From Methanomicrobiales archaeon (lineage in GTDB: Archaea; Halobacteriota; Methanomicrobia; Methanomicrobiales; JACTUA01), in NCBI GenBank assembly GCA_030019205.1, contig JASEFH010000017.1, positions 1 to 61,181 on the forward strand: 61,181 bases of DNA, written 5' to 3'. Of this stretch, positions 6,097 to 53,143 are shown piece after piece. The first letter of the stretch is position 1. Every line of letters begins with the position of its first letter. Below the pieces are notes generated by a model that was given only the letters and a program-made list of their open reading frames with translations, ran no database searches and was not told where the DNA came from. The position numbers and the translations under genes were made by a program.

Positions 6097-6153
6097 CCTA
6101 TAAGAAGGCAGCACACGCCCGGACCCGCAGTCCGCCCCCGGGACGGGAGGGAT

Positions 6154-20587: not shown

Positions 20588-21763
20588 TCAGGCGGGGATC
20601 CCCAGCACCAGCATGCAGAGGAGCCAGGAGATGAGAGCGGCGAGGGGAATTGTGACGATCCAGGCAGCAACGATCCCGCGGACCACGCTCCACTGAACGG
20701 CATCCACGCCCCGTGTCGCCCCGACGCCGATGATCGAACCGCTGATCACCTGCATCGAGGAGAGCGGCATCCCGATCAGCGTCGCTCCCACGATCACCGC
20801 CCCGCCGGCGGCCGAGGCGGCGAATCCCTGGTATGGTCGGATACGGGTGATCTCCATCGCCAGCCTCTTCACCACCCGCCAGCCTCCGAAAAGCGTCCCG
20901 AGTGCGATCACCGCCGCCGACGCGGCGATCGCGCCGGTCGATACGGTGAATGCGGGGACGAAGCCTGCCGAGAGGAGGAGCGCCGAGATCATGCCCGCCG
21001 CGATCTGGCCGTCATGGGAGCCGTGCCCGACCCCCTGAAAGGCTGCGGCCAGGATCTGAAGCGGCTGGAAGATTCTCCGCGTCTTCGTTCTGGAGGAATG
21101 GCGGAAGAGATGGGAGATGAGGATATTGAAGAGGCAGGCCGCCAGGAATCCCAGGACAGGGGAGATCAGGATGAAGACGACAATGGCCAGGAGCCCTGTG
21201 ATCTCGCCCCTGTCCCGGAGAAGCAGCGCGGTGATGGCGATAGAGATGCCAAACGCCATTCCGGCAAGGACGGGAATCCGGACCGGCATTTTCAGGGAGA
21301 GGGCGACCGCCCCGAGGAGCATGCCGCCGGCGAAGGCCCCCAGCAGGGCGTAACCCGTCAGGGTCTGCAGGGCTGCGGGATCGGGGAGGATCAGGGCCGT
21401 CAGTCCTCCGGAGGCGATCGCGGCCCCGATCAGTCCGCCAATCAGGGACTGGTTGGCCGAGACGGGGAATCCCAGGGATGCGGAGAGGAGGAGAAGAGCG
21501 AGCGCGGTCGCGAGAGCGGTCGTCAGGATCAGCGGGGTCAGGCTGTCGGGGTTCACGATGCCGGTCCCGATGGTGCGGGCCACCGCGGTTGCGAGGACGA
21601 AGGGCCCGACGAAATTGGCGGCGGCGGCGAGCACCACCGCCCTCTCGGGAGAGAGACTGCGTGTGGCGACAGGGGTGGCGATGGCGGTTCCGGCATTGAC
21701 GAGTCCGTTGGCGAACGTGAAGAGGAGGGCGAGGACGATGCCAGCGAGAACGAGGGCGTCCAT
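20588..21763 (-). CDS. PiT-family inorganic phosphate transporter
   Basis: FANGLVNAGTAIATPV plus a second half-repeat (GHGSHDGQ), 10-12 TM. Confidence 0.85.
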   Translation of the reverse strand: MDALVLAGIVLALLFTFANGLVNAGTAIATPVATRSLSPERAVVLAAAANFVGPFVLATAVARTIGTGIVNPDSLTPLILTTALATALALLLLSASLGFPVSANQSLIGGLIGAAIASGGLTALILPDPAALQTLTGYALLGAFAGGMLLGAVALSLKMPVRIPVLAGMAFGISIAITALLLRDRGEITGLLAIVVFILISPVLGFLAACLFNILISHLFRHSSRTKTRRIFQPLQILAAAFQGVGHGSHDGQIAAGMISALLLSAGFVPAFTVSTGAIAASAAVIALGTLFGGWRVVKRLAMEITRIRPYQGFAASAAGGAVIVGATLIGMPLSSMQVISGSIIGVGATRGVDAVQWSVVRGIVAAWIVTIPLAALISWLLCMLVLGIPA

Positions 21764-21769
21764 ATGCGG

Positions 21770-22411
21770 TCAGGCATAGGATCGGGATATCTCGAAGAGC
21801 ACGTGCCCGAGGTCGTTGCACTTCTCCAGTACCGACGCCATGCTCTCGTAGATGTCTTTCAGCTTGATGATCCGGACCGGGTCCCGCGTCTTGAACAGCT
21901 CGGGGGTGGCACGGGAGAGGAGATCGCTGCCCTGGTTCCAGAGGCGGTTGATCTCAACGCTGCGCGTCTGGAGTTCGGCGGGCCGCCTGACGATCCTGAG
22001 GACCTGAATGCCGTTCTGGATCTCGCGGGCGCTCGATGCGATCAGGAGAGAGAATTCTTTTAGAGGTGCATTCGGCTCATCGATATCGTAGTTGCAGATC
22101 TGATGCCCGACCCAGTCGATGCGGTCCAGAACGTCGTCGAGCGCCGACGCCAGACGCGCGATCTCTTCGGGTTCGAGCGGCGTGATGAGGGAGCGGTTGA
22201 GGCTCTCGAAGATCTGGCGGGTGATCCCGTCACCGTTGTGCTCCAGCACCCGGAGCCGCCGGCAGCTCGTCTGGTCCGGTGCGAGATCCGTCGTCAGAGC
22301 AACGAGGATATCCGCCGCCTCCACGATGGTCGTGGCCATCTCCTCGAAGAGCGAGAAGAAAACCTTCTCCTCGGGAAGGATGATGTCGCGCAGGTTGCCG
22401 GGAATGTGCAT
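21770..22411 (-). CDS. DUF47 (PhoU-like) phosphate-transport regulator
   Basis: All-helical DUF47 pattern. It is immediately upstream of, and co-oriented with, the PiT gene. Confidence 0.8.
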   Translation of the reverse strand: MHIPGNLRDIILPEEKVFFSLFEEMATTIVEAADILVALTTDLAPDQTSCRRLRVLEHNGDGITRQIFESLNRSLITPLEPEEIARLASALDDVLDRIDWVGHQICNYDIDEPNAPLKEFSLLIASSAREIQNGIQVLRIVRRPAELQTRSVEINRLWNQGSDLLSRATPELFKTRDPVRIIKLKDIYESMASVLEKCNDLGHVLFEISRSYA

Positions 22412-23422
22412 GGGGGTTTCGGATCTCAGGTTGTACGGCTACGGGAAAAGCAATGCTATTTGGTCATGCCATCGATGCCGAACCGATACCCTCCCGGATC
22501 CCGGAGAAGGGGGAATGATCCTCCCTGCGCCTCTCCGCTGCCGGAGATGCGGTCGATGCGGCGATTCCGCCGGAGGAGTGTATCGGAATGCGGAAGGCAA
22601 TCCTGCAGGATCGGATGGGGAGCCCCGTTCGGGCGGCGTGGCGGCAGCGGATCCTGTGCAGCCGAGCGCGGAACCCGTCGCGGCGGAGGCATTGTCGCTC
22701 GCTGGAGGGGAAAAGGTATGCGGAACCGGCCCTGTCGAAATCCTCATCGAGAGCCTGGTGACGGCTCTTCGGTATGCGCCGGGAGCGGGCTTCGCCCCTC
22801 CTTCGTGCGATGGAGAGGCTTCTCCCCGGTACTCGCCGTGCGGGCAGGTCGTCGATGGGTTCTCCGGGGGATCGGTGCGGGAACATGCCGGGAGATTCTC
22901 TGCAGAGCCGCGGGGCTCCCTCCTGCGCAGATCGGATGCCGCGGACGATCCGTTCTCTGCACCGCCCCGGCATCCTGTCGTGCAGCGGGAACGCTCCCTC
23001 CCCCCTCACCGCTTTCGCCCCGATCCTCCGCCCCGCTCCTGCACGGCGGGGACCGGCGGAATGCAGGGGCGCATGAGAAGGATCGAGCCACTCCCCCCCC
23101 ACCTCTTCGCGGATGGCGGATGGGCTGATCGGACTCCCCTTCGTCCCCTGCCTCTCCGTCCGCATCGTGCGGAACTGCCGGAAGAACGCCTCTCCCTCCG
23201 CCTTCTCCGCCACCCTTCTCCGGCTGCGGGGAGACCTGGCAGAGCATCTTCGCCAGCCTGGAACGGAAGTTCCTGCGGCGGGAGGAGGTCTTGGCAGCAC
23301 GCTCGCCACCCCCCTCTGCCCGGCTCCGCTGCTTTCGCGGATCACCGCCCCGATCGTCGCCGGGAACATCGTCGGGCGCCTGGTCCAAGGGGCATGCTGC
23401 GGGAGGGGGAGGTGAAGCGCTC

Positions 23423-26344: not shown

Positions 26345-26779
26345 CTATTTTCTTGTATCGAAGAACTCCAGGAACCAGCGGACGAACTCCATCAGCTGGC
26401 GCATGTCGGCGGGTTTGGTGATATAGTAGGTCGTGGGATACTGGGTTGCCTGGCTGTAATCCATCTCGTCTTTGGATCCGGTCAGCACCACCACCGGTAT
26501 CTTCTTCAGGCGGGCGCTCGTCTTGATCTCATGGAGCACCTCCCGCCCGTCCTTTCGGGGAAGGTTGAGGTCGAGGAGGATCACATCCGGGGCGGAGACG
26601 GAGGCGTATTTCCCCTTCCTCTCCAGGAACTCCATCGCCTCCACCCCGTCCCCGACGGTGCTGAGGTGGTAGTGCATCCTCGACTCGCGGAACGCCTCCT
26701 CGATGGATCGCACGTCACCGGGGTTGTCTTCGACGAGAAGGATCCTCTTGGGCATCTCGAGTTGTCCTTCGTTCTTCAT
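26345..26779 (-). CDS. stand-alone CheY-like response regulator (REC domain)
   Basis: KRILLVEDNPGDVR…ILLDLNLPRKDG…PVVVLTGS…K. TAG stop. Confidence 0.85.
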   Translation of the reverse strand: MKNEGQLEMPKRILLVEDNPGDVRSIEEAFRESRMHYHLSTVGDGVEAMEFLERKGKYASVSAPDVILLDLNLPRKDGREVLHEIKTSARLKKIPVVVLTGSKDEMDYSQATQYPTTYYITKPADMRQLMEFVRWFLEFFDTRK

Positions 26780-27005
26780 GATAGCCTCTAATGGGGCGGT
26801 GCAGAATAAAAAGATTCAGCCCGCACGCCTCCGCGGCGGGCGGGCGCCCCCGTCCCGGTGCGCGCCGGGTGAAGGGGATCGTCCCTTCCCGGGCTCCGGC
26901 CCGCCGCGGCGGTCGATGATCCGTTTGACGACGGGATACAGACGGCGACTCTGCGGCGTTATGCACGGCGGGCGGGAGGGGGGGCACCGCATCTGCCGCC
27001 GCTCC

Positions 27006-27566
27006 TCACCGTTCCGCCTCGATGCACCGCTCTGCGTTCAGCAACCCGGCTCGCGCGGAGGGGTAATCGGGTTCGAGCCGCAGTGCCTCGGCGTATGCCT
27101 TCTGCGCCTCATGGCACCGCTTCTGCGCCATGAGGAGATCGCCTTTGTTCTGCCAGGCGACGGCGAAGTCGGGGCGGATCTGCAGCGCCCGATCGTAGGA
27201 CTCCATCGCCTCCTCGTAGCGCTTCAGGTTGAAGAGCGCCAGGCCCCGGTTGCACCACAGGGCCGGATCGTTGTCGCAGCCGTAGCGCAGCGCGGTATCG
27301 AACGTCTCGACGGCGCGGTCGTACTCTTTCCGGAGACCGAATACGACTCCTTTGTTGTTCCACGTCGCGCAGTGCTGCGGGCTGATCTCGAGCGCCTTGT
27401 TGAAGGCCAGAATGGCGCTTCCATAGTCCCCGCGTGAGGCAAGCGCCCTGCCCCGCTCGTTCCAGAGCGAGATCTCGTCGGGGGTTTCGGATCGGGGGAT
27501 GGGCCAGGGCCAGACAAATACCGCCGGCAGGCATTTCAGCAGGGTCCAGGGTTGCTTGAGCACCAT
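27006..27566 (-). CDS. tetratricopeptide-repeat protein
   Basis: Four or five TPR units (W..G..L…Y.EA…Y..AL.I.P). Confidence 0.8.
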   Translation of the reverse strand: MVLKQPWTLLKCLPAVFVWPWPIPRSETPDEISLWNERGRALASRGDYGSAILAFNKALEISPQHCATWNNKGVVFGLRKEYDRAVETFDTALRYGCDNDPALWCNRGLALFNLKRYEEAMESYDRALQIRPDFAVAWQNKGDLLMAQKRCHEAQKAYAEALRLEPDYPSARAGLLNAERCIEAER

Positions 27567-28340
27567 GCGGTGCGGAGTACTCGGTGCAGGGATAAAAACT
27601 GTTGGGGGCTATTGCCATGGCGCGGCCGTCCAGGCAGCGAAGGATCCTGCCCCGCACTCGCAGTTCCCGTCCGATTTCCGCCCGGAACGGGGAGGTGGGG
27701 CGGCCGTCTGCCCGAAGGAGGGGAACGGCATCGGCAGGGATGGCCCCACCCGTGCGGGGCGCCGCCACGGTCTCCGCCAGCACTGCCGGAACACTTCGGG
27801 GAGGCGGACAGCACGCCTCTCCGCACCCTGCGCCCGGGGCGGAAGATGCCCGGAGCCGCCTGCCAGCACCGCAGGGAGATCGCCCCGGTCCGGGGGAACG
27901 GTCGCCGTCTCCGGTTGCCCGCAGCGGCCGGCCGGGGAGCGTGGGGCGCACACGATCGACCGGTCTCGTCGAAGACCCGGCTGGGGGGGGGGCGGCTCGA
28001 ACCGAACTCCGGATGTCCGGTTCAAAATCCTCGGTGTGAGGGATCCCGGGATTGCGGTGACGGGGGACACGTCCTGCCGTGCGGAGCGCCGGCGGAGAAC
28101 GAGCCGGGGCAGCCTGCCGGCAGTCACCCCCGGTTGCCGAAGGGGTCCCGATGCTCCCTGTCCCGGTCGTGGTTGCCACCGGCGGGGGAAAACGGCTTCG
28201 CTCCCGCACGCGACCGCGGCGCCTACCGGAGCGAGGGATGCGGCCTCGTTCATGCGGGACGGCATCGATGGGAGGGAGGGCACGGCGCCGGCAGGGGGCG
28301 GGGACCGGGGATCGAAGCCCGCCGGCAGGGCTTCATGCGG

Positions 28341-30794
28341 TCACTGTTCGTCCGCGAGCGGCAGCGTGAAGAAGAAGGTGGTCCCCTTCCCGGGCTCGGA
28401 CTCGACCCGGATGGCGCCCCCGTGCCGCTCCACGATCCGCTTGCAGATGGCGAGCCCGATCCCGGTGCCGGGATACCGATCCCGCCCGTGGAGCCGCTGG
28501 AAGATGACGAAGATGCGGTCGAAGTACTGCGGCTCGATCCCGATCCCGTTGTCGGCGACGGAGAACTCCGCCATCCCCTGCTGCCTCGCTGCCGATACCC
28601 GGATCCGCGGGGGTTCGTCCTCCCGCCGGAACTTGATCGCGTTGCTGATCAGGTTCGAGAAGACCTGGCGGATCTGGGACGGATCCCCCTTCACGCAGGG
28701 GAGGGGATCGCAGGTGACGGAGGCTTGGGACACCTCGATCTGAATCTGGAGGCTGGCGAGCACCTCCCTGAGCACCAGCTCCGCGTTCACCCTCCCGGGT
28801 GGACGCGCCCGTGTCGAGATGCGGGAGTATTCCAGCAGGTCGTTGATCAGCGCCTGCATCTGTTTGCCCGCATCCACGATGTAGTCGATGTACTCGTCCG
28901 CCTCCCTCCCCATCTGCCCCTTGTACCGCCGCTCCAGCAGCTGGGTGAAGGTCACGATGGTGCGGAGCGGCTCCTGCAGGTCGTGGCTGGAGACGTAGGC
29001 GAACCGCTCCAGGTCCTCGTTGGACCGCTTCAGGTTCCGGGCGTACTCCCGCAGGGCCTCCTCGGCCTGCTTGCGATCCGAGATATCGCGGAAGAAGACC
29101 TGGATCGCCGGTCGTCCGTCCGCGAGCGTGCGGGTGCCGCGCCCCTCGACCCAGGTGGACGTCCCGTCCAGGCGGAGGATGCGGAGCTGCTGCGGCGGCG
29201 TCTCCGCGCCTTCCAGGTCCCGCCCGATATTCCCCCGGACGATCTCCCTGTACGCCGGATGGACGATGCTCAGGATCTCCCGTCCGACGATTTCGGCAGG
29301 ATCCGACGCCCGCAGCAGCTGCACCCCCGCGGGGTTGACGTACACGATCGTGCCATCGCGGTGGATCAGGATGGTATCCGCGGCGAGCTCCACCAGTTTG
29401 CGGTACTTCTCCTCGCTCTCCCGCAGCGCCTGCTCGATCCGTTTCCGCTCGGTGATGTCGCGGGCATTCACCACGAATCCCTGGATCTCGTCCCCCTGCA
29501 GGAGGCTCGCCCCCGTGACCTCCAGGAGGTGCCAGGTGCCGGAGGCGTCGGCGATCCGCACCTCGAGGTTCAGCTGCAGCAACGGCTGCGCCACCGCCTT
29601 CACGAACGCATCAACGACGGCCGGCACGTCCTCGGGATGCGTCATCTCCAGGATGTGCCGCCCGATCAGGCTCTCGGGCGCGTAGCCCCCGATGCGCCGC
29701 ACCGAGGGGCTGGCGTAGGTGAGATGCCCGTCCGTGTCGAGGAGGACGATGATGTCGGAGGTGCGCTCGATGAGCATGCGGAACTGCTCCTCCCTCTCCC
29801 GCAGTGCCCCCTCCGCACGGTTGCGCTCCAGGGCGTGGGTGAAGAGCTCGGCGGCGACGCGGATGAGAACGATCTCCTCTTCCGTCCAGCGGCGGGGGTG
29901 CCGCACGGACTCGAGCCCGACCTGCCCCCGCACCACGCCGCCGGAGACGAGGGGCGCCGCCAGGATGGCCCGGATCCCGCCGCCCTCAAGGACTTCCCTC
30001 TCCGCCCCGGCCGCCGGCGGCAGCGCGGCGGCGCTCGGAACCCGGACCACCTCCCCCCTCCGCATCCGCTCCCTCCACCAGGGGCAGCGGTCGGAGGCCA
30101 GCGCCTCCGGGACGGCCCTGCGGGGCTCGATCCCCGAAGCGCACCACTCGTGGATGCAGGGGTGCGGATCGCCCCTCTCGCCCCCGACCTGCAGGTAGGC
30201 GCGGTCCGCCCCGCTGATGGCGCCCAGGGAGGCGACGGCATCCCGGATCTCACCGTGTGCGTTCTCCGCCGTCAGGTGGAGGAGGCGGTTCGAGAGCGTC
30301 ACGATGTACTCGATCGCGCCGATCCTGCGGGTCGGCCCCGTCCGATCGGGGAGCCCCGTCGACTGCGCCAGCCCGCTCTGCCGTTCGGCATGTTTCCGCC
30401 GCGTGATATCGCGGAACGTGACCAGGATGGCGGTGCCGCCGCTGTAGACGATCTCTCCCGCCAGCCCCTCGGCCCACCGCTCCTCGCCACGGACGGTGCG
30501 GATGCGGTATTCGACCGGGACGCCGCCCCACCGCAGCCGTACCAGGGGAGGAACGCCGGAGTCCGCCGGATCGGAGAGAAACTCCCGCATGTTCCGCCCG
30601 ATCAGCCCGGCGGGACTCTCCAGGCCCGCCAGGGTGGCCCCGGCCGGGTTCGAGAAGAGGATCGTGCCGTCGGGGGAGAGGACGAGCGTCGCGTCGATGA
30701 GGCTGTCCAGGAGGAACCGCGAGGGATCTCCGTCCCGGGGGTCTGCCGGAGGAGCCGGCGGTCCGCGGCGATCCTCTTCGGGTGGGAACGTCAT
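28341..30794 (-). CDS. PAS/GAF/PAS multi-sensor histidine kinase (His[11 protein letters not shown] type)
   Basis: Multiple PAS domains, one GAF-like domain, an H-box ([16 protein letters not shown]) and a HATPase_c ([18 protein letters not shown]). Confidence 0.9.
28350..29080. repeat. inverted repeat copy A (HisKA/HATPase-coding segment) matching 33758..34500
   Basis: About 255 bp (28813-29080) is nearly identical (about 3 mismatches) to the reverse complement of 33758-34020. Weaker similarity continues across the ATPase region. Confidence 0.7.
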
Positions 30795-31379
30795 GGCCGT
30801 GTTCGGACCGGGATATTTATAAAGATACTACTATGGGACCTTCGATAAAGGTTGCCCCTCCCGCGGATCGCCACCGCTGCCTCGCGGGGTCGGGCGGTAT
30901 TCCTGGCGGCGCCGTCAGGGGCAGCCGTCGCCGCTCTCCTGCCGGGCGGTGGGGCGGGGCTCCGGGGGTGGACCGCTGCGGGTGCCCTGCCGGCGAGGAG
31001 GGGAAGAACGTTCCGGTTTTCCGGTGCGGCTATCCGGTGCGAAGGTCCGGACATCGGGCGATCCCCGCCGGCGGGCCGAACCCCGGGAACCCACGACGCC
31101 GATCAGGACGGACAGCGTTCCTGCACCCCCGGAGGGCTGTACGGGAAGGGCATCCTCCGTTGTCAACGCCGGCAGGGGTTCCGGCAGAGCGGACAGCCGG
31201 GGCATGGACCTCTCCCGGTATTCGGGTGCCCCATCCCGCCGGGGAGGGGGCAGCAACCTGGATATAGCCGTTCGATATACTCCCGGGCCGAGGGAACGCC
31301 GCACGTTTTGCGAGACGGCAGCGGATGCCGGGCGGACAGGTGCGGTCCTGCCGGCGCGCCCGGATCCGCGGAGGGGCCG

Positions 31380-31632
31380 CAGGCTGGTGCGGATCGTGCC
31401 GCCCTGCGTCGTCTTCTCCCTCGTCTACCTCGCCGCCATGGCCGCCTCGGCCTCGCTCCTCCAGGGGATCCGCACCGTCCCCTCCCTCTCGATCCGGGAG
31501 ATCGGCTGCCGTCTCCTCAGCGGCTCCTGCCACGACCACCTCTGGTTCGTCGTCCTGATCGTCGAGCTCTCCCTGATCTACCCGCCCCGCATCCGGCGGG
31601 GCGGGCGGCGGGCAGCGGCATCCGCCTCCTAG
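31380..31632 (+). pseudogene. remnant of an acyltransferase-3-family membrane protein (fragment)
   Basis: The frame reading …VPPCVVFSLVYLAAMAASASLL…GSCHDHLWFVVLIVELSLIYPP has third-codon-position GC above 90% and an HLWF-type motif. It lies inside an otherwise frame-less 830-bp stretch with no plausible start or upstream partner. Confidence 0.35.
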
Positions 31633-31886
31633 ATCTCCAGGGATATGCCGGCGAAGTAGAGGAGAAGGATGAGCGCCACGCCCACGATGCCGCCGATCGC
31701 GCTGATCAGGACCGTGATGATGTTGATGGGGATATCCGGCTGGAGAAAGATGTTGGCGATGAACAGCAGGAGCACGCCGACGATCGCGTTGACGACGAGG
31801 GATATGGCGTTGCGCAGGAACCAGTAGAGCACGACTGCGACGATGACGGCCAGAATGAGGATGACGATCCCTTCCAGGAGAGCCAT
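31629..31886 (-). CDS. BofA-family (pro-sigmaK processing inhibitor-like) small membrane protein
   Basis: 85 aa with two TM helices; the length and hydrophobic pattern fit BofA. TAG stop. Confidence 0.55.
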   Translation of the reverse strand: MALLEGIVILILAVIVAVVLYWFLRNAISLVVNAIVGVLLLFIANIFLQPDIPINIITVLISAIGGIVGVALILLLYFAGISLEI

Positions 31887-31938
31887 GGAGGGCAGATGGC
31901 CGCCCTCCTATTAAAACATGGCGGAGGACCCGCCGCCT

Positions 31939-32679
31939 CTATCCCAGTTCCACCGCCGCCCGTGCGTCGAAGGGGTTCGTCCGCATGGCGAGCGAGAAGA
32001 GGTAGGGGTAGTTGTTCTTCAGGTGCTCCATGTAGTTCAGCCACTCGCGGATCAGGCAGCCGTAGACCCGTTCGATGTCGGTGCAGACGTGCGTCCGATC
32101 CGCACCGCTGCACTGCCCGAGGTCCTTTCTCCGCTGGAGCTCCTCGGCCAGGTGGAAGGTGGCCCGGAGGAGCTCCGTGAAGGACTCGTGCTCCAGGAGG
32201 AGCGGGTTCTCGAGCATGCGGACGAGGATGTCCTCCCTGCCGGCAAGATAATCCCGGAGGGCGACCAGATCCAGATCCTCCCCCCGGACCTGGGGCGGGT
32301 GCTCCGCGATTAGGTTCCGCACGCGGTCGAACTCCGCCGCCGTCCAGGTTCCCCGCACCACCAGCCGCCCGCGGATGTTCTCGAGCCCGGGATCGTGGTC
32401 CGATAGGAGGGCCAGAAGGTGCGTCCCCACGGCGCTGAAGAACACCCCGATGATCATGTTCAGCTTCTCCAGTCTCCGCCGTAGGTCCCGGCGCTCCAGG
32501 AGGCGGTGGATCACCAGCGTGACGAGCAGCACCTCGACCGGGAGGAACGCGATGTCTCCCAGGGTGTAGATGGCGATGTGGTGGAGATCGAGGAAGACCA
32601 GGTAGTGGGCGGTGTAGAGGAGGACCGACGCGACGATCAGCGCAGCGGCCAGGTAGAGCTCCCATGTGCGGATCTTCAT
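31939..32679 (-). CDS. membrane protein of unknown function (two N-terminal TM plus cytoplasmic helical domain)
   Basis: Start at MKIRTWELYLAAALIVASVLLY; no recognisable family. TAG stop. Confidence 0.5.
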   Translation of the reverse strand: MKIRTWELYLAAALIVASVLLYTAHYLVFLDLHHIAIYTLGDIAFLPVEVLLVTLVIHRLLERRDLRRRLEKLNMIIGVFFSAVGTHLLALLSDHDPGLENIRGRLVVRGTWTAAEFDRVRNLIAEHPPQVRGEDLDLVALRDYLAGREDILVRMLENPLLLEHESFTELLRATFHLAEELQRRKDLGQCSGADRTHVCTDIERVYGCLIREWLNYMEHLKNNYPYLFSLAMRTNPFDARAAVELG

Positions 32680-32856
32680 GCTCTCTGCGGCCCCGGAGGG
32701 CGCGGGAGGTCTTCTTCCTTGCGGTGGCGCCCGGGCGGGCAGCCCCCGCACCGCGCTGGACCGCCGGCACGCCGGGGCCCGTCCGTTCACGGGGATCGCC
32801 GCGGACCCGGCGGCCAGCACCTTTCCCAAGGACAATGCTTATCATATAGCGGAGGG

Positions 32857-34524
32857 ATGATCCTACATACCCTGATTTTTGGGCATGGAGCCATGCTGGA
32901 AGGTACGTCACCGGAAGAGCACCTGCGGAATCGCCCCGAAGATAGGGCACAGGAGGCCTCTGCGAAGCTCATGGCGGAGCTGCAGTCCATGCTCCAGGCG
33001 CTGGAATCCGAGAGCAGCCTGCGGAAGAAGGCCGAAGAGGGGCAGAGGGAGAGCGTTCGGAGGTACCGCAGTCTGGTGGAGCAGTCCCCCGACGCCATCA
33101 TCCTCCACCGCGCCGGGACGATGGAGTATCTCAATCCGGCGGCCGTCCGTCTTTTCGGGGCTAAGAAGGCGGGCGATCTGATCGGCACCTCGATTCTGGA
33201 GCGGATCCATCCCGATCACCGCAGCCTCGTCCAGTCCCGCATGAACCGGCTCCTCCAGGGGAAGCGGATCCCGAGGAAGGAGCTGAAGCTCGTCGATATC
33301 CACGGGCGGGAGGTGGACGTGGAGGCCACGGGGGCGCTCGTGGGACCGGGCGGGGCGATCCAGACGATCCTGCGGGACGTCTCGAGACGGAAACGGGCGG
33401 ACGAGGCGCTCCGGAAGAGCGAGGCCCGCTACCGCGAGCTCGTGGAGCTGCTCCACGAGGGCGTCGTGATCGTGGACCCGGAGGAGATCATCACGTTCGC
33501 CAACCCGCGGATGGCGGAGATGTGCGGCTGCCCGCTGCGGGATCTCATCGGGAGATCGTTCCTCAGCCTTGCCGACGCCGAGAACGCGGAGGCCGTGCGG
33601 AAGAGTCTCGGCCGCCGGAAGCGGGGCATGCAGGGGAGGTGCGAGGTGAGCCTGCGCAGGCAGGATGGAAGCCGGCTATACGTCTCCCTGCAGGCGTCGC
33701 CCATGACAGACGGGAGAGGCAGGCACGCCGGCTCTCTCGTCACCCTGGTGGACATGTCGGATCGCAAGCAGGCCGAGGAGGCCCTGCGGGAGTACGCCCG
33801 GAACCTGAAGCGGTCCAACGAGGACCTGGAGCGGTTCGCCTACGTCTCCAGCCACGACCTGCAGGAGCCGCTCCGCACCATCGTCACCTTCACCCAGCTG
33901 CTGGAGCGGCGGTACAAGGGGCAGATGGGGAGGGAGGCGGACGAGTACATCGACTACATCGTGGACGCGGGCAAACGGATGCAGGCGCTGATCAACGACC
34001 TGCTGGAATACTCGCGGGTGACCACCCGCGGAGGGGAGATCACGGAGTCTGACAGCGAGATGGCGCTGGAGCAGGCGATCTCCAACCTCCGCTCCCAGCT
34101 CGAGGAGTCGGGGACGGCGGTCACGCACGATCCGCTGCCCGCGGTGCTGGCGGATCCGCCCCAGCTGGTGCAGGTCTTCCAGAACCTGATCAGCAACGCG
34201 GTGAAGTACCGCCGCGAGGACGAGCCGCCGAAGGTCCACGTCTCGGCAGAGCGCCGCAACGGCTACGTGCAGTTCTCCGTCGCCGACAACGGGATCGGGA
34301 TCGAGCCGCAGTACTTCGACCGCATCTTTGTCATCTTCCAGCGGCTCCACGGGCGGGAGAAGTACTCGGGGACGGGGATCGGGCTCGCCGTCGTGAAGCG
34401 GATCGTGGAGCGGCACGGGGGCGCCATCCGGGTCGAGTCCGAGCCCGGGAAGGGGGCCACGTTCTTCTTCACGCTGCCGGAGCCGCTGCGGACGGAGCCC
34501 GTGCAGAACTATGAGGCGGGGTGA
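32857..34524 (+). CDS. PAS multi-sensor histidine kinase, paralog of 28341..30794
   Basis: Three PAS domains plus HisKA and HATPase_c. The HisKA and ATPase segments are nearly identical at nucleotide level to the gene at 28341..30794. Confidence 0.9.
   Translation: MILHTLIFGHGAMLEGTSPEEHLRNRPEDRAQEASAKLMAELQSMLQALESESSLRKKAEEGQRESVRRYRSLVEQSPDAIILHRAGTMEYLNPAAVRLFGAKKAGDLIGTSILERIHPDHRSLVQSRMNRLLQGKRIPRKELKLVDIHGREVDVEATGALVGPGGAIQTILRDVSRRKRADEALRKSEARYRELVELLHEGVVIVDPEEIITFANPRMAEMCGCPLRDLIGRSFLSLADAENAEAVRKSLGRRKRGMQGRCEVSLRRQDGSRLYVSLQASPMTDGRGRHAGSLVTLVDMSDRKQAEEALREYARNLKRSNEDLERFAYVSSHDLQEPLRTIVTFTQLLERRYKGQMGREADEYIDYIVDAGKRMQALINDLLEYSRVTTRGGEITESDSEMALEQAISNLRSQLEESGTAVTHDPLPAVLADPPQLVQVFQNLISNAVKYRREDEPPKVHVSAERRNGYVQFSVADNGIGIEPQYFDRIFVIFQRLHGREKYSGTGIGLAVVKRIVERHGGAIRVESEPGKGATFFFTLPEPLRTEPVQNYEAG
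33758..34500. repeat. inverted repeat copy B matching 28350..29080
   Basis: See copy A. The encoded peptides [73 protein letters not shown] are identical. Confidence 0.7.
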
Positions 34525-34535
34525 AGGGGAGCCGA

Positions 34536-34799
34536 TCAGCCCCGATCGATCGGCAGGCCCTTCCCGCCGAGTGTGCGTTCGATCTCCTCCAGGAGCCCGG
34601 GATCGGCGAGGGCGTGGTCGAGCGTCGGGATGCCCCCCACGAGCGGGATCGGTTTCAGGATGGCGACGGGAAGTTCCCCGCCGCGCTCGCCGGACTCGCC
34701 GGGGGCGCAGGGGGCCATGGTGCCATCCCGATACACGGCAATGTTGCTGTAGCCCTGGGCATCCCAGAGCGTCCGGATAACATCTCGGGTTGTCGTCAT
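34536..34799 (-). CDS. small hypothetical protein (87 aa)
   Basis: ORF begins MTTTRDVIRTLWDAQGYSNIAVYRDG with a TATA-like box about 28 nt upstream. The longer N-terminal extension in ORF 34536..35414 is not supported. Confidence 0.4.
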   Translation of the reverse strand: MTTTRDVIRTLWDAQGYSNIAVYRDGTMAPCAPGESGERGGELPVAILKPIPLVGGIPTLDHALADPGLLEEIERTLGGKGLPIDRG

Positions 34800-34826
34800 G
34801 CGTGCCGCTGTTGTACTCTCCTGCTG

Positions 34827-34832
34827 CTTATA
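34827..34832 (-). promoter_or_regulatory. TATA-like box (TATAAG) for the 34799 gene
   Basis: The minus strand reads gagaGTATAAGcagcagg…(27 nt)…ATG, the spacing expected for a leaderless archaeal transcript. Confidence 0.35.
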
Positions 34833-35469
34833 CTCTCCCCACGCTCTCCCGCCGGGAGCGGCCGGGACCTCTCCGCGGATCAGCAGCGGAACGATCGCGA
34901 GCGCGCAGCAGACGGCGGCAGCCGGGATGGTGGCGCCGGTGGCATCCGCCAGCACCTGCGGATCGGCTCCCGGCACCGCGCCGCTGCAACCGCGCAGGAG
35001 CCCGGTGCTGCTGGGGCTCTGGAAGAGCGCGTTGCCCATCGCCGGGGAGATGGAGAAGGCCATCGAGGCCCCGGTCGTCGCCTGCAGGATCCGGGTGCCG
35101 ACGATGACCGGCAGCGTGGGCGCCGGGGCGCAGCCGAGGGAGCTGGCCGTGACGATGCCGATCAGGATCGCGGCGGGGACGAGGCGGCGCAGCACCCTCT
35201 CCCCGGATGCGATGGGGTTGCCGTGGAGGGGCGCCGATCGACGCCGTGTGCGGCCTCGATGATCTCCATCTCCTAACGCGCGGGCCCCCTCCAGCATACG
35301 GGCGCTGGTGCGACAGGACACCCGGACGCACGAGGGCTGGAGCAGCGCCGGGTGCGCGGGGCAGGAGATTCCGCGCCATGCCCGCCTGCACCCGGCGGAT
35401 TCGGATGGCTGCATCCGCGGGGAGATGCGGCGGCTGGAGGCGGACGCGGAGGAGCGACGAGATCGGGAT

Positions 35470-38400
35470 TCAGGAGGACGAGCCGTCGTCGTCGCTCCCG
35501 CAGGTGAAGAAGAAGGTGGTGCCCCGATCGATCCCCGACTCCACCCAGATCCGACCGCCGTGGCGGTCGAGGATCCGCTTCACGATGGCGAGCCCCACGC
35601 CGGTCCCCTCGAACTCCTTCTCGCTGTGGAGCCGCTGGAAGACCCCGAAGAGCTTCTCGGCGTACCGGGGATCGAAGCCCACGCCGTTGTCCCGCACGAA
35701 GTAGACCGTTTCACCGTCCTTCGCAAAGGATCCCACCTCGATTCGGGCCATGGCGCGGGGGCGGGTGAACTTCAGCGCGTTGCTGAGCAGGTTGTGGTAG
35801 ACCTGGCTGATCAGGAACGCGTCCGCACGGGAGGGCGGCAGGGGCCCGATGGTGAACTCGACCTGCCGCCCCGCGCACTCGCTGCGGAGATTCTCCCAGA
35901 CCGTCTTCACGACCGCGGTGATGTCCACGGCCTCCTTCGTGAGCGACGAGCGGCTGATGCGGGAGAGATTGAGGAGGGCATCGATCAGGTTCGCCATCTG
36001 CTGGGTGTTCGACCGCACCTTCTCCAGGTAGACCCGGGCCTCGGGCGGCAGGCTCGAGCGGTACTCGGAGAGCAGGATCCCCGAGTAGCCGTCGATCGCC
36101 CGCAGAGGAGATCGGAGATCGTGGGACACGGAGTAGCTGAAGGACTCCAGTTCTCCGATCGCCGACTCCAGTTCGGCGGTCCGTTCGGCGACGCGGCGCT
36201 CCAGCTCCTCGTTCAGGCGGCGGATATCCTCTTCCACCTTCTTCAGGCGGGTGATGTCCACGATGACGCCCCGGATGCCCGCCACGGCGGAGCCGGCGTA
36301 GACGGGGGTGGCATATACCATGACGGGGAAAACGGTTCCATCCTTGCGCACCGCCGTATACTCCATGTCCACCAGGCGGACTCCCTGACCGACCTTCAGC
36401 ATGCTGTCATGCACCCGCTCCCTCTGTTCCGGCAGGACGACAGCATCGAGAGAGATGCCCCGACCCAGATCCTCCGGCGTGTAGCCGAAGGTGTCGAACG
36501 CGTACTGGTTGGCGAAGGTGATGACACCCTGCAGGTTCGCCTCGAATACCCCCTGCGGCAGGAGGCTGACCAGATCGCGGTACTTCTTCTCGCTCTCCCG
36601 CAGCTCCTCCTCGATCCGCTTCCTCTCCGTTATGTCCCGCCCGACCGACTGGTACTCGGTGACCCGCCCGTCGGCATCGAAGAACGCCCGGTCGTTCCAC
36701 TGCTGCCAGCGGATCTCCCCGCCGGGGAGGATCAGGCGGTGCTCGATGTTCGCCGAGGGGTTGTGCGGCGTCAGCGAGCGGAAGTGGGCCTCGACAAGGG
36801 CCCTGTCCGCCTCGGGGATCTGCGGCACGAACCGCCGCCCGACGATCTCGCTGCAGGTCTTCCCGAAGTAGCGGCAGTAGGCATCGTTGGCGAATATGTG
36901 GGTCCCGTCGGGGCGGAAGCGGGCAATGAACTCGCTCTGGGTCTCGACAACGGCCCGGTAGCGCTCCTCGCTGCTCTGCAGCGCCTGCATGCTCGCCTTC
37001 AGCCGCTCCACCATGGTGTTGATGCTCCTCTCCAGCACCGCCAGCTCGCTCGCGCTCGAGGGGGGGACGCGGCGGTCCAGGTCCCCCCGTGCGATGGCTT
37101 CCGCATCCTGCACGATCCGCTGGATCGGGCGGGTGAGCCCCTGCGAGAGGGCCAGGGCTAAAAGGCCGCTCAGGGCGATCGCGCCCAGTGCGACCAGGAC
37201 GTGCGAGAGGAGCAGCCGCTGCAGCTCGGTGTCGACGAGGTTCGTATTGTAGGTGAGCTCCAGGATCCAGCTCGTATCGGAGGCGTAGTCGGGACTGGCG
37301 AGATCGACCAGCAGGTAGCGCACCGTCTTCCCGCTGCCGGGGATCTCGACCGTCCGCCTCTCCTGAATGACGCGATCGAGCGCCGCCGCCTCCTCCGGGG
37401 TGGGAACGTAGCTGAAGTTGCCCATCATGTGCCGGGTGGTGTCGAAGAGGCGGACCGTCTCCAGGTAGGGGTTGCGGGCGGCGATGGCGGTGATGCCCGC
37501 CTCGTAATCCAGGCGATGGTGCTGCTCCTTGAAGAGATCCTCCGCCATTCCGAGCTCGAGGATGTAGCGGTGATCCGGCGTGGGCATGTAGGCGAACTTG
37601 CGGAACATGCCGGTCGCGGTCTCCCGCACGACGCGATCGGGGTAAAATCCGTCCTTCTGGAGAATGTCCATCAGGAATTCGTGGGTATGGTTCCACTGCC
37701 GGAAGTCGAGCCCGAGATCCGGCGCAAAGGTGGTGCGCTCGACCACGGCGGAATCGTTGATGATGTAGAGGTCCATCTCGCCGCCCAGTTCCGTCTTCAC
37801 GCGTTCGAGATCCATCCGCGAGACGTCCCGCCCGGCACGTTCGTACTCGGCCAGGAACTGCATGAATCCCTCCCGCATCCTCGCGTTGAGGGTCTCGTCG
37901 TACAGAAGGTAACCGGTGTCCACCAGGCGGACGGTCTGCCCCAGGTAGCCCTCGGTCCCCTGCCGGGCAAGCGCGGCGGTCTCCTGGAAGTCCCTCTCCG
38001 TCTTGACGTAATCGGCAGCGGTCACGGCGACCACGACGAATCCTACGATCAGAACCATGACGAGGAAGATGGTGTGGGCGAGACGGCGCTCCCCGGGGAG
38101 GGGCCGATACCCCCGGGCGCGGCCGTGCTCTCGCGGCGCGGCGCGATTCGGCTCCCCCCGGGAGATCGCGTCCACATCGGACGCCATCTGCTGGATCGGG
38201 ACGGCGATGCGGCGCGTGAGGAGGACCGCACCCAGAGCGGCGAGGACGAAGGCGGCGGTTGCGGCCAGGAGGTGGTAGAGGATGCCGGTGTCGAGCGTGC
38301 TGCGGAGATTCGCGGTGTCGTAGGTGATCTCCACGATCCGGCTGACGTCCGACCCGTATCTCTCGTCCCGCAGGTCCACGAAGAGGTAGGTGACCTTCCT

Positions 38401-39198
38401 GCCGGTGATCGGATCGTCGATCCGCAGGGTCTCCCGCTGCTGGATCACCCGGTCCAGGATCGCGTCGACCTCGGGTTCGGGTTTGAGACTCGCATTCTCG
38501 CGGAGCTGCTTGCGGCTGTCGAAGATCCGCACCTGCTGGACGTAGGGATTGAGCGACGTTATCTGGCGGATGCTTTCGCTCTCCCCCATGCGGGAGAGCG
38601 GCGTGTTCAGGATCTCCCCCTGCAGCCCCAGCTCGAGGACGTAGCGGTGGTCCGGCGTCGGCATGTAGGCATACTTCCGCAGGATGCCGGTGGCCGGCTC
38701 GGTGACGATGCGGTCGGGGAAGAACCCCTCCGACTGGCGGATGGCGGTCAGGTAGTCGTAGAAGTACGGCACCTTCCGGAAGTCCAGGCCCCGGTCGGGT
38801 GCGAAGGTGGTGTACGCGATAACCCCGGTTTCGTCGATGACGTAGAGATCCATGTCGCCCCCGATCCGCTCCTTGACCCCTTCCAGGTCCATCCGGGCGG
38901 GATCCCGCCCGGCGCGTTCGTACTCCTCCAGGAATAGGCCGAACCCGTTCAGCATCCTCGCGTTGAGCGTGCCGTCGAAGAGCTTCTGCCCGTCATCGAT
39001 GATGCGCAGGTTCTGATCGATGCCGTTCTCGACCTGCTGCTCGAGCAGTTCCGTGCGGGCTGCCAGGTTCCGTTCGGCGAAGGTGTAGTCCACGCAGGTG
39101 GTACCCGCCGTGGCGACGGCGATGAGCAGGAAGAGGGAGATCAGCAGGTAGTGGGAGAAGGGGCGTTTTCCCGTGTCCATCGGAATTCTCGACGGCAT
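35470..39198 (-). CDS. giant sensor histidine kinase with two tandem extracytoplasmic sensor modules, HAMP, two PAS, HisKA and HATPase_c
   Basis: Start at MPSRIPMDTGKRPFSHYLLISLFLLIAVA. It contains two homologous TM-sensor-TM-HAMP units (…FLEEYERAGRDPARMDLEGVKERIGGDMDLYVIDETG… and …FLAEYERAGRDVSRMDLERVKTELGGEMDLYIINDSA…), then PAS, PAS, an H-box (FSYSVSHDLRSPLRAI) and an ATPase. The upstream 216 codons of the ORF are low-complexity and rejected. Confidence 0.85.
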   Translation of the reverse strand: MPSRIPMDTGKRPFSHYLLISLFLLIAVATAGTTCVDYTFAERNLAARTELLEQQVENGIDQNLRIIDDGQKLFDGTLNARMLNGFGLFLEEYERAGRDPARMDLEGVKERIGGDMDLYVIDETGVIAYTTFAPDRGLDFRKVPYFYDYLTAIRQSEGFFPDRIVTEPATGILRKYAYMPTPDHRYVLELGLQGEILNTPLSRMGESESIRQITSLNPYVQQVRIFDSRKQLRENASLKPEPEVDAILDRVIQQRETLRIDDPITGRKVTYLFVDLRDERYGSDVSRIVEITYDTANLRSTLDTGILYHLLAATAAFVLAALGAVLLTRRIAVPIQQMASDVDAISRGEPNRAAPREHGRARGYRPLPGERRLAHTIFLVMVLIVGFVVVAVTAADYVKTERDFQETAALARQGTEGYLGQTVRLVDTGYLLYDETLNARMREGFMQFLAEYERAGRDVSRMDLERVKTELGGEMDLYIINDSAVVERTTFAPDLGLDFRQWNHTHEFLMDILQKDGFYPDRVVRETATGMFRKFAYMPTPDHRYILELGMAEDLFKEQHHRLDYEAGITAIAARNPYLETVRLFDTTRHMMGNFSYVPTPEEAAALDRVIQERRTVEIPGSGKTVRYLLVDLASPDYASDTSWILELTYNTNLVDTELQRLLLSHVLVALGAIALSGLLALALSQGLTRPIQRIVQDAEAIARGDLDRRVPPSSASELAVLERSINTMVERLKASMQALQSSEERYRAVVETQSEFIARFRPDGTHIFANDAYCRYFGKTCSEIVGRRFVPQIPEADRALVEAHFRSLTPHNPSANIEHRLILPGGEIRWQQWNDRAFFDADGRVTEYQSVGRDITERKRIEEELRESEKKYRDLVSLLPQGVFEANLQGVITFANQYAFDTFGYTPEDLGRGISLDAVVLPEQRERVHDSMLKVGQGVRLVDMEYTAVRKDGTVFPVMVYATPVYAGSAVAGIRGVIVDITRLKKVEEDIRRLNEELERRVAERTAELESAIGELESFSYSVSHDLRSPLRAIDGYSGILLSEYRSSLPPEARVYLEKVRSNTQQMANLIDALLNLSRISRSSLTKEAVDITAVVKTVWENLRSECAGRQVEFTIGPLPPSRADAFLISQVYHNLLSNALKFTRPRAMARIEVGSFAKDGETVYFVRDNGVGFDPRYAEKLFGVFQRLHSEKEFEGTGVGLAIVKRILDRHGGRIWVESGIDRGTTFFFTCGSDDDGSSS
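36950..39093 (-). repeat. internal tandem duplication (two units of about 1.08 kb) encoding the two sensor-HAMP modules of the giant kinase
   Basis: Protein units at aa 36-395 and 396-about 750 align collinearly at roughly 50-60% identity. Coordinates are approximate. Confidence 0.6.
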
Positions 39199-39526
39199 GC
39201 TGGCACCCGCACTCCGGTCGGGGGAAGATCCGGATCTCCGGCGATCAGGGGATTGGGTGTTGAGCATGATAATGGCTCCGCAGCCGGGATGGTCATCCGT
39301 GTGCGCCGGAGCCTCCGGGCCCATGAAGGCTCCCGCCGGCGTCCTCCCCGCTGCTTTCGCAAAAAACCCCTCCGTGCGATCCCGAGCGGCGCAGGCCGCC
39401 CCGTCGGGGGCGTCCCGCGGGCGACAGGGGATGGCGGCGATCCGGGCGGGGGAGCCCCGGTCCTCGCACTCCCGCAGAAGGGCAACCCTAAAACCGTGGG
39501 ACCTGCTATCTGATACGGGGAGGCTC

Positions 39527-40543
39527 ATGCTGGAGATGGTGCTCGTCGCTCTGACGTTTGCCTTCGCCTTCACCAATGGCTTCCAGGATGCCAGCACGAT
39601 CGCCGCGACCTTCATCGCGTCCCGCTCGGCGACCCCCCGCCGGGGGATCCTCTTCATCGCCGGGCTGCAGTTCGCGGGGGCGCTGCTGGGCGGGACCGCC
39701 GTCGCCTTCACGCTCTCCTCCCTGCTCGCCTTCGACGCCGGTCCGGCGGCGGTCCCGGTGCTGCTGACCGCCCTGCTGGGGGCGATCGCCTGGAACCTCC
39801 TGACCTGGAGGTATGCCCTTCCCTCCTCCTCCACCCACGCCCTCATCGGGGGTCTGGTCGGAGCCGGCGTCGCCTACGGCGGTCCTGCCGGCATCTTCTG
39901 GGGCGTCGCGGAGTTCCTCGCCCCCCCGCACGAACTCGCCGGTCTCCTGAAGATCCTGGTCTTTCTCGCCGTCTCCCTGGCAGTCGGTCTCCTGGGGGGG
40001 TTTGCCCTGCACCGCACGGCCGCGCTCCTGCTCCGCAACGCCCGGCGGGGAGTCGTGCGGGAGATCGCGCGCAGCAACTGGATCGCCGCGGGGTTCATGG
40101 CGTTCTTCAACGGCGCCAACGACGGCGGGAAGCTGCTGGGAATCGTGCTCCTGGGGCTGGGCGCCTCCGGCACCTGGGCGGGCACGGGGCAGCCGCTCTG
40201 GGCCCGGCTCGGCATCGCCCTGCTCATCACCCTGGGAACGGTCGGGGGCGGGTGGCGCATCATGGCCACCCTGGGGCGGCGCATCTTCAAGATCGAGCCC
40301 CTCCACTCCTTCTCCTCCCAGTTCTCTTCCGGAGCCTCGATCGCCCTCTCCACCCTCGCCGGCGCCCCCATCTCCTCAACCCACGTCATCACCAGCTCGG
40401 TCCTCGGGGTGGGGGCGGCGGAGAACCCGCGGCGGGTCCGGTGGTCGGTGGGGCGCGACATCGTCGCCTCGATGCTGCTCACCCTCCCGGCGACCGCGCT
40501 CCTCACAGCCTTTATGTACTGGCTGATCGCACCCTTCCTCTAG
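39527..40543 (+). CDS. PiT-family inorganic phosphate transporter (second copy)
   Basis: FTNGFQDASTIAATFIASR and FFNGANDGGKLLG half-repeats. Confidence 0.85.
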   Translation: MLEMVLVALTFAFAFTNGFQDASTIAATFIASRSATPRRGILFIAGLQFAGALLGGTAVAFTLSSLLAFDAGPAAVPVLLTALLGAIAWNLLTWRYALPSSSTHALIGGLVGAGVAYGGPAGIFWGVAEFLAPPHELAGLLKILVFLAVSLAVGLLGGFALHRTAALLLRNARRGVVREIARSNWIAAGFMAFFNGANDGGKLLGIVLLGLGASGTWAGTGQPLWARLGIALLITLGTVGGGWRIMATLGRRIFKIEPLHSFSSQFSSGASIALSTLAGAPISSTHVITSSVLGVGAAENPRRVRWSVGRDIVASMLLTLPATALLTAFMYWLIAPFL

Positions 40544-40553
40544 AGCGTGACGG

Positions 40554-41201
40554 ATGGACAGAAAGAGCGGGGATCAGAAGGAGCACAGGGGCCTGTTCGA
40601 CTCCATCTTCCCGAAGGAGTACGACTTCGAGGGCATGCTCGCCGAGCAGGCGGACCGCACGGTGGGCGGCGTCGAGTGCTTCCTGGACTGGCTGCGGGAG
40701 CGCCCCGCCGGGGAGCCGCGGGAGCTGGAGCGGCGGGAGGAGGAGGTGGACGACTTCCGCCACAGGCTGGAGGATCTGCTGACGGAGGCGTTCTTCACGC
40801 CCTTCGACCGCCAGGACCTCTACTACCTCTCGCGGCAGATGGACTACATCCTGAACTTCGCCACCGAGACCGCCCGCGAGATGCACGCCTTTGCAGTGCT
40901 GCCCGATGCGCCCATCCTGGGCATGGCGGAGGCGCTGCTGCGGGGGACGAAAAGCGTCACCGCGGGCGTGAAGGCTCTCCGATCGGACGGCAGGGCGGTC
41001 GAGCGGCGGGTGCAGGAGACCCGCGACGCGATCAACGCGATCGAGAACATCTACATCGCGGGCATGGCGGAACTGCTCCGGGACAGCGATGCGATGGAGG
41101 CGCTCCGCCGGCGGGAGATCTACCACCACCTGCGGGATGCCGGCAGAGCGCTGCGGGACACGGCCGACGTCCTCCACCGGGTGGCGGTCGGTCTCGGGTG
41201 A
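40554..41201 (+). CDS. DUF47 (PhoU-like) protein (second copy)
   Basis: Helical DUF47 pattern, 11 bp downstream of the PiT gene. Confidence 0.82.
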   Translation: MDRKSGDQKEHRGLFDSIFPKEYDFEGMLAEQADRTVGGVECFLDWLRERPAGEPRELERREEEVDDFRHRLEDLLTEAFFTPFDRQDLYYLSRQMDYILNFATETAREMHAFAVLPDAPILGMAEALLRGTKSVTAGVKALRSDGRAVERRVQETRDAINAIENIYIAGMAELLRDSDAMEALRRREIYHHLRDAGRALRDTADVLHRVAVGLG

Positions 41202-53142: not shown

Positions 53143-53143
53143 A

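Follow-up and report, generated by a model that had tools for sequence, protein, structure and literature searches.

The inverted genes tufA and tufB of Salmonella co-evolve by gene conversion, and at most 50% of the recombination events between them result in inversion (PMC6735719, citing Hughes 2000; Abdulkarim & Hughes 1996; PMC5485169, Paulsson et al. 2017). For histidine kinases, domain shuffling has been described as a hallmark of family expansion, with its mechanism called unclear (Alm, Huang & Arkin 2006; PMC1630713). Here we describe two paralogous histidine-kinase genes, kinases A and B, lying in opposite orientations in a 61,181-nucleotide (nt) stretch of DNA from a Methanomicrobiales archaeon (GenBank assembly GCA_030019205.1, contig JASEFH010000017.1, positions 1 to 61,181), which is called the window below. 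The window was compared with two further strains of the species and with the only syntenic relative found, contig JAXDAH010000034.1 of the metagenome-assembled genome (MAG) Methanomicrobiales archaeon POMEDNA-A03, called L001 below. Between window and L001 the block bracketed by the two kinase genes is inverted, the catalytic domains of the kinases are orthologous crosswise, and the coding sequences of the two DHp domains in the window have been homogenised by gene conversion. These features are very probably explained by general recombination between the inverted arms of the two paralogs, with ongoing conversions and at least one crossover that would have inverted the block and swapped the catalytic ends.

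The tufA and tufB genes of Salmonella enterica are inverse paralogs on one chromosome that undergo general recombination with contiguous conversion tracts of tens to hundreds of base pairs, and in some events the intervening DNA is inverted, so that the 5' portion of each gene continues into the 3' portion and downstream context of the other. The present locus has the same elements, namely inverse paralogs, conversion tracts and an inversion with breakpoints inside the repeat (28954-29037 and 33966-34013). However, the tuf genes are near-identical throughout and encode the same protein, so that their recombinants are functionally equivalent, whereas the homology here is restricted to the 3' half, the sensors differ and the catalytic domains have diverged (non-synonymous divergence, dN, about 0.27), which gives two new reciprocal chimeras. 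The distance between the genes is also much shorter (4.7 kb compared with 760 kb for tuf), and the locus belongs to an archaeon. Like the expanded families of Alm et al. (PMC1630713), kinases A and B combine a conserved kinase core with differing N-terminal PAS/GAF sensor sets; unlike those cases, which were inferred from domain architectures, one event can be placed here to within about 100 bp, its two reciprocal products are both present and its mechanism is identifiable. Within the limits of our searches, no precedent for gene conversion or inversion between histidine-kinase paralogs was found in the literature. The kinase class and the recombination mechanism are thus known, and what is new, within the literature searched, is a resolved natural case of this mechanism re-assorting the modules of a signalling protein.

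Coding inverted repeats and in-frame rejoining of modules are also found in shufflons, type I hsdS loci and intragenic invertons (Chanin et al., bioRxiv 10.1101/2023.03.11.532203), but those systems have short repeats and a dedicated site-specific recombinase and are reversible within populations, whereas a fixed difference between species is documented here. It therefore does not belong with the programmed inversion systems, among which intragenic invertons are its nearest analogue. The engineered sensor-kinase chimeras Taz, Cph8 and YF1 were fused in the linker/DHp region, which is tolerant of module exchange with signalling retained. The junctions of the natural chimeras likewise lie in the coiled-coil linker/DHp region; in the laboratory constructs a sensor was joined to a complete core of DHp and catalytic ATP-binding (CA) domains, whereas the natural event splits this core and exchanges the CA domain.

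The window has a base composition of 67% G+C, and three PAS-type histidine-kinase genes (A, B and C) are located between 28 and 40 kb. Kinase A (28341-30794, reverse strand) consists of 817 amino acids, with a GAF domain, three PAS domains, HisKA at residues 595-660 and HATPase_c at residues 703-814, as judged from its open reading frame and Pfam. Kinase B (32857-34524, forward strand) consists of 555 amino acids with two PAS domains, HisKA and HATPase_c, and the same 555-residue gene was called in JASEIH010000017.1, a contig from a second strain. The larger kinase C (35470-39846, reverse strand) has 1458 amino acids. HisKA (PF00512) was matched with E-values of 8.5e-13 in kinase A and 5e-13 in kinase B, and HATPase_c (PF02518) with 1.2e-30 and 4.4e-30; the H-box motif was present in both, and the reading frames were intact. 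The catalytic domains are of the type with N, G1, F and G2 boxes, and the motifs NLISNA, DNGIGI and GTGIGLA were visible in the alignment of the two kinases. By these features kinases A and B can be classed as ordinary class I (HisKA-type) sensor histidine kinases that are predicted to carry out autophosphorylation and phosphotransfer to a receiver domain. The ratio of dN to synonymous divergence (dS) between them and their L001 orthologs was about 0.4-0.55, and both genes are intact and under purifying selection.

A repeat search of the window revealed two inverted repeats between kinases A and B. The first (28822-29087 and 33751-34016) is 98% identical over 266 nt, with its arms 4663 nt apart; the left arm encodes the S-helix linker of kinase A together with its complete DHp/HisKA domain, and the right arm encodes the DHp domain of kinase B. 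The second, older part (28359-28781 and 34057-34479) is 80% identical over 423 nt and falls in the catalytic domains. Its left arm, in kinase A, has patches of high identity at the G1-G2 boxes; its ortholog in L001 is the catalytic domain of the B-sensor kinase. For the right arm, in kinase B, the L001 ortholog is the catalytic domain of the A-sensor kinase. No other repeats of at least 80 nt with comparable identity were found in the search of the whole 61-kb window. An earlier note on this DNA had described about 255 bp of near-identity and about 700 bp of similarity between the two genes; its gene coordinates and repeat sizes agree with the open reading frames, Pfam matches and repeat search, the two repeats together amounting to about 0.73 kb of coding homology. 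In one respect the note was mistaken, since it called the genes convergent, whereas kinases A (reverse strand) and B (forward strand) form a divergent pair with their 5' ends facing each other, the repeat arms outermost and both sensor-coding regions inside the bracketed segment.

Pairwise alignment of the two arms showed a mosaic, in which the near-identical DHp tract is followed by a diverged N-terminal half of the catalytic domain and then by high identity at the G1/G2-box region. The tract of 86 codons (SDRKQ...LLEYS), spanning the S-helix linker and the entire DHp/HisKA domain, contained three synonymous differences and one non-synonymous difference, and the DHp domains of the two kinases differ at one residue (Q/R). 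The following 85 or so codons, from the DHp-CA linker to past the N box, were diverged both in amino acids and at synonymous sites. In an alignment of eight sequences the window arms were identical at 253 of 256 positions of the tract, with a longest exact run of 128 nt. Identical codons were used for 82 of the 85 identical amino acids of the tract, against a background of 0.57-0.61 for the same domains compared with kinase C (binomial P = 1.5e-14). By the Nei-Gojobori method, the DHp tract gave dS 0.05 and dN 0.005 between the window arms, the adjacent catalytic domains gave dS 0.43 and dN 0.27, and the DHp tract of the two L001 genes gave dS 0.53 and dN 0.18; orthologous neighbouring genes of window and L001 had dS values of 0.13-0.36. 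Because the tract has a dS of 0.05 in the window and 0.53 in L001, its near-identity reflects recent gene conversion between old paralogs, not constraint. A recent duplication as the source of the tract is not supported, since both of its flanks are old and diverged. Of the two origins that the earlier note had left side by side, recent gene conversion or duplication, only the first is thus upheld, by the synonymous identity, by a strain (FWPV01038173.1) in which the tract is partly unconverted and by alleles shared between the arms, both described below.

The second strain, JASEIH010000017.1 (MAG GCA_030017635.1), matched the window at 99.7-99.8% identity, 58 differences being counted over 20.3 kb. 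The third strain was represented by two contigs, FWPV01038173.1, which covers window positions 36617-31587 at 99.5% identity, and FWPV01008749.1, which covers 28870-17007 at 99.7%. L001 was 79% identical to the window over the A sensor; when one genome of each GTDB species was scanned with the A sensor, it was the sole syntenic relative, and the same single ortholog was returned from 5.8 billion proteins. In the other genomes of the GTDB scan that matched the A sensor (L002, L003, L008 and others, at most 42% identity) the flanking genes were not shared. A metagenome scan for an outgroup turned up just the two FWPV contigs, and the best matches of the core domains (P0122 and P0127) lie in neighbourhoods unrelated to this locus.

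Comparison of L001 with the window by blastn showed that the flank with the gene of a TPR protein (26989-27652) and the right flank (34480-35162) are both forward, while all of 28359-34479 is reversed, including the kinases, the membrane protein, the BofA gene and the acyltransferase pieces. The left flank marker, the TPR gene (27006-27566, reverse strand), is collinear and 90% identical in L001. The right flank carries a degraded remnant of an MFS transporter gene (34536-35195, reverse strand), whose 626-residue counterpart also flanks the right arm in L001. The order in L001 is TPR(-), B-sensor kinase(-), membrane protein(+), BofA(+), Acyl_transf_3(-), UvrD/PD-(D/E)XK helicase-nuclease(+), A-sensor kinase(+) and MFS(-), and in the window it is TPR(-), A(-), acyltransferase remnant(+), BofA(-), membrane protein(-), B(+) and MFS remnant(-). 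The inverted segment (29088-33750) thus contains both sensor-coding regions, the 5' ends of both kinase genes and three small genes or remnants. These are a BofA-like small membrane protein (31629-31886, reverse strand; PF07441, E=6.7e-13), with its L001 ortholog at 4729-5010; a membrane protein (31939-32835, reverse strand) with MJ1433_N/MJ1433_C domains in the precomputed Pfam table and zero matches in a separately scanned copy of Pfam, 81% identical to L001 2902-3696; and a remnant of an Acyl_transf_3 gene (31116-31597, forward strand), recognised by Pfam and by comparison with L001, where the gene is full-length (691 amino acids). The same three had been named by the earlier note, together with the proposal that the block between the arms could invert; the block is indeed opposite in L001 relative to the collinear flanks. 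Homologous recombination between the arms appears to have produced this inversion.

That the chromosome was not inverted and two large independent conversions exchanged sensors or catalytic domains, or that the tract owes its identity to strong purifying selection and codon bias, is extremely improbable. Conversion clearly operates at the locus, and with about 0.9 G+C at third codon positions (GC3) codon bias does raise synonymous identity, which is reflected in the background of 0.57-0.61. Nevertheless, the block also holds three non-kinase genes whose order and strand, judged against the flanks, are the opposite of those in L001, an outcome that conversion cannot bring about, and selection with codon bias leaves the 82 of 85 identical codons unexplained, with the same tract at dS 0.53 in L001.

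Gene decay relative to L001 was seen on both sides of the kinase pair, at 30800-31600 and 34536-35195 in the window, corresponding to 5090-9874 and 12513-14393 in L001. The Acyl_transf_3 gene of L001 has been cut down to about 480 nt in the window, the gene for the UvrD/PD-(D/E)XK helicase-nuclease (1031 amino acids in L001) is absent, and the MFS transporter gene remains as four collinear fragments.

To follow the exchange within the genes, the 3' halves of the four kinases (wA and wB of the window, lA and lB of L001) were aligned and their identity was scanned in windows of 60 nt. In the sensor-proximal part the matching pairs were wA-lA (91-98%) and wB-lB (63-93%). In the catalytic domain they were wA-lB (73-95%) and wB-lA (75-96%), and the 3' flank also paired wB with lA (88-91%), whereas the sensor-matched pairs wA-lA and wB-lB fell to 43-76% in the diverged part. 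The dN values of the catalytic domain were 0.15 and 0.09 for the flank-matched pairs and 0.30 and 0.31 for the sensor-matched pairs. The sensors are thus orthologous A to A and B to B, while the catalytic domains and 3' flanks are, as judged from these comparisons, orthologous crosswise. Relative to L001, kinase A is a chimera that carries an A-type sensor on the flank-linked "left" catalytic domain, and in kinase B the B-type sensor is followed by the "right" catalytic domain. The earlier note had foreseen that output modules could be exchanged between sensors. This is borne out for the catalytic ATP-binding domain and the gene tail, which are the exchanged module; it does not hold for the DHp domain, which carries partner specificity and is homogenised between the two kinases instead of swapped.

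The switch points were located by typing every alignment position at which the two kinase genes of L001 differ. Kinase A was a-type by 13:1 through column 115 (window position 29038), uninformative at columns 116-199 and, beginning at column 200, b-type for the rest of the gene up to its stop codon, with a ratio of 61:19 beyond column 329. Kinase B, most clearly in the FWPV strain, was b-type through about column 280 (33965), mixed at columns 281-328 and a-type by 59:12 from column 329 (34014). The A-to-B-type switch in kinase A therefore falls at 28954-29037 (reverse strand), around the H-box coding sequence, and the B-to-A-type switch in kinase B at 33966-34013 (forward strand), where DHp helix 2 ends. 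Both arms are b-type in the stretch that separates the switch zones (33885-33965 and 28873-28953, columns 200-280), as would be produced by a crossover with an associated conversion tract. The H-box, being the most conserved sequence of the family, would have been an obvious homology substrate for the crossover in kinase A. The crossover points are approximate because the mosaic within the tract is imperfectly clean.

In the A-sensor kinase of L001, the segment of the DHp loop region that encodes ERQYRERLDASADEY (L001 11900-12010) was 68-70% identical to the three other copies, which are mutually alike; a third paralog of the L001 genome may be its source. In a separate search for a third paralog that could have supplied the near-identical tract of the window, the best database matches to the kinase core were at most 70% identical, the species' own proteins apparently being missing from that database.

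Comparison of the strains indicated that conversion between the arms is ongoing, because one strain is without part of the converted tract and alleles are common to both arms. The FWPV strain differed from the window by 14 substitutions clustered at 33762-33810. They overlap the most recent A-to-B conversion patch (33758-33800, forward strand), which is present in the window and JASEIH010000017.1 and absent in FWPV01038173.1, where 12 of the 14 sites that distinguish the two L001 genes have the L001 B-type base. In the window and JASEIH010000017.1, the tract thus owes its 5' part to a later conversion, in the A-to-B direction, which has not reached all strains of the species. At column 125, A is found in the left arm of JASEIH010000017.1 and in the right arm of FWPV; at column 203 the right arm of the window has the left-arm base, and at column 292 the left arm of FWPV has the right-arm base. 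Variants at columns 567 and 629 are similarly shared or swapped between the arms among the three strains. The identity between arms in the tract was 98.8% in the window, 97.7% in JASEIH010000017.1, 92.6% for the FWPV B arm against the A arm and 79.3% in L001.

The 58 differences between the window and JASEIH010000017.1 were themselves clustered, with, for example, 10 in 22754-22851 and 8 in 37670-37885, inside kinase C. This clustering suggests more patches of recombination or conversion among strains outside the repeat.

The reading that we favour, general recombination between the arms, would proceed as follows. Kinases A and B are taken to be old paralogs whose 3' halves, encoding the DHp and catalytic domains, form the outer inverted repeat of a divergent pair. 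Homologous recombination between these arms, presumably by the archaeal RadA-dependent pathway, would act on them; a general machinery is inferred because the homology is long and coding and a site-specific recombinase is absent. At least one event would have been resolved as a crossover in the DHp-coding sequence near the H-box, inverting the block of about 4.7 kb and joining each sensor in frame to the catalytic domain, C-terminal tail, stop codon and 3' flank of the other gene, while a conversion tract of about 130-210 bp left the same sequence in both arms. Continuing non-crossover conversions would then have re-homogenised and extended the tract, the latest of them (33758-33800, A to B) being still polymorphic within the species. 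The outcome would be two intact kinases with distinct sensors and distinct catalytic domains and with DHp domains identical but for one residue. As to the order of events, the much fresher tract in the window hints that the inversion took place in the window lineage, an argument that is blurred by the repeated conversion.

An alternative is a programmed reversible switch, in which the block flips often within populations and toggles the fusion of sensor and catalytic domain. In its favour, the geometry matches domain-swapping inversion systems, the arms demonstrably recombine often within the species and at least one inversion has taken place. Such a switch is very unlikely, since no recombinase, integrase or invertase domains were found by Pfam scans and precomputed Pfam tables among the genes from about 21.6 to 41.9 kb, and the only transposase (60609-61139) belongs to an unrelated island at a distance of 26 kb. 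Moreover, the repeat is a long, decaying coding homology of 0.73 kb instead of a pair of short conserved recombinase sites, all three assemblies of the species show a single orientation, and the L001 arms, being about 80% alike, are a poor substrate for frequent flipping. An active flip-flop without a recombinase, in which RadA crossovers in the re-homogenised DHp tract would invert the block at a measurable rate within populations, is in our judgement improbable as well. If it were true, cells would alternate between two pairings of sensor and catalytic domain, amounting to phase-variable two-component wiring in an archaeon, and the switch would stay "charged" because gene conversion preserves the identity of the tract.

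Since the window and its relatives come from metagenome assemblies, the arrangement might in principle have been created by the assembler. On this explanation the true genome would be L001-like with a non-crossover conversion tract, and a jump between arms in the exact repeat would have produced a false inversion. The data are of the type in which this can happen: Logan contigs of SRR23186779, which match the window at 100% identity, reach about 35 nt into each arm and stop there, as k-mer graphs are expected to do at a repeat, FWPV01008749.1 breaks inside the left arm, and the exact run of 128 nt between the window arms coincides with the inferred crossover zone. However, JASEIH010000017.1, with its 58 differences over 20 kb, spans both arms in the arrangement of the window with a longest exact run between arms of only 88 nt. 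FWPV01038173.1, with a B arm 92.6% identical to the A arm in the tract, runs from the kinase B sensor to the right flank and independently links the B sensor, the right catalytic domain, the MFS remnant and kinase C. The three assemblies of the species agree on one orientation, short-read contigs otherwise breaking at the repeat, and none of the collections searched yielded a contig with the alternative junction, so that an error in the same direction would be needed in three assemblies. The orientation of L001 is safe because its arms are 79-87% alike with a longest exact run of 45 nt. Altogether an assembly artefact is very unlikely.

The following points weigh against recombination between the arms as set out above. 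The stretch at columns 200-280 is not clean, having 5-6 a-type sites among 15-17 b-type ones, and the A gene of L001 is the outlier there. The window and its relatives are metagenome assemblies in which the 128-nt exact run sits at the inferred crossover, so that for the window alone a switch of arms by the assembler would mimic the inversion. Finally, L001 is the one other species with the locus, and a single event and repeated flips, as well as the direction of the change, are indistinguishable from this comparison.

Contig ends of another kind were noticed within kinase A. Contigs of three independent assemblies (JGI 3300010347, JGI 3300009664 and ENA ERZ795050) all stop exactly at 30725 in the window, some 70 nt into the gene from its 5' end, and a fourth stops at 30763, while Logan contigs read through. 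These ends reflect either a strain-level structural difference or a systematic drop of coverage in a stretch of 72-75% G+C.

The DHp domain of histidine kinases encodes partner specificity and dimerisation. As the DHp domains of kinases A and B are near-identical, the two kinases should feed the same response regulator or regulators and might heterodimerise. A candidate partner is a stand-alone CheY-like receiver response regulator (26345-26779, reverse strand; PF00072, E=4.4e-20), which is encoded downstream of the TPR gene. Families of histidine kinases expand when genes are duplicated and their sensor and transmitter modules are then re-assorted, and this locus offers one concrete route, in which the H-box/DHp coding sequence of inverted paralogs serves as the recombination substrate. 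A single crossover would yield two intact reciprocal chimeras together with an inversion, and conversion would homogenise the domain of partner specificity, the predicted outcome being two sensors that act on one regulator, possibly as heterodimers. The locus also calls for caution with phylogenies of kinase cores and with orthology calls, which can be mosaic within one domain, and for genome assembly it marks a site where short-read contigs break or could be mis-oriented.

The possibility that the inversion re-wired an operon of kinase, TPR protein and response regulator was considered and is weakened, since the TPR gene has its own TATA-like element and lies 775 nt from the kinase in the window. 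This element, about 30 nt upstream of the TPR ATG, is conserved in the window species and in L001, and co-transcription of the TPR and receiver genes with the kinase is doubtful. The interval from kinase A to the TPR gene contains a G+C-rich segment of about 650 nt (27652-28308), which is present in all strains of the species and absent from L001, where the distance from the kinase stop to the TPR start is 150 nt. In this segment no Pfam match, no coding-type GC3 signal and no recognisable mobile element was found, nor was a second copy found in the window. A poly-G run at 27983, within the segment, is polymorphic in length.

Elsewhere in the window, two pairs of PHO4 phosphate-transporter and PhoU_div genes (20588-22438 and 39152-41201) flank the kinase cluster, one on each side and on opposite strands, with a different order within each pair, and the repeat search of the window detected no DNA-level repeat between them. 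Toward the end of the window, a tRNA-Gly(CCC) gene (51492-51566) is followed by a region of about 9 kb with low G+C (52000-61181; 45-55% compared with 66%). The region encodes an HFX_2341/Csa3-like protein (54691-55494), the type I restriction-modification methylase HsdM (56307-58016) and a Schlafen/AlbA_2 protein with a RecG-like C-terminal domain (57994-59757), and at the window end it contains a DDE transposase fragment (60609-61139). It looks like a defence island inserted beside the tRNA gene.

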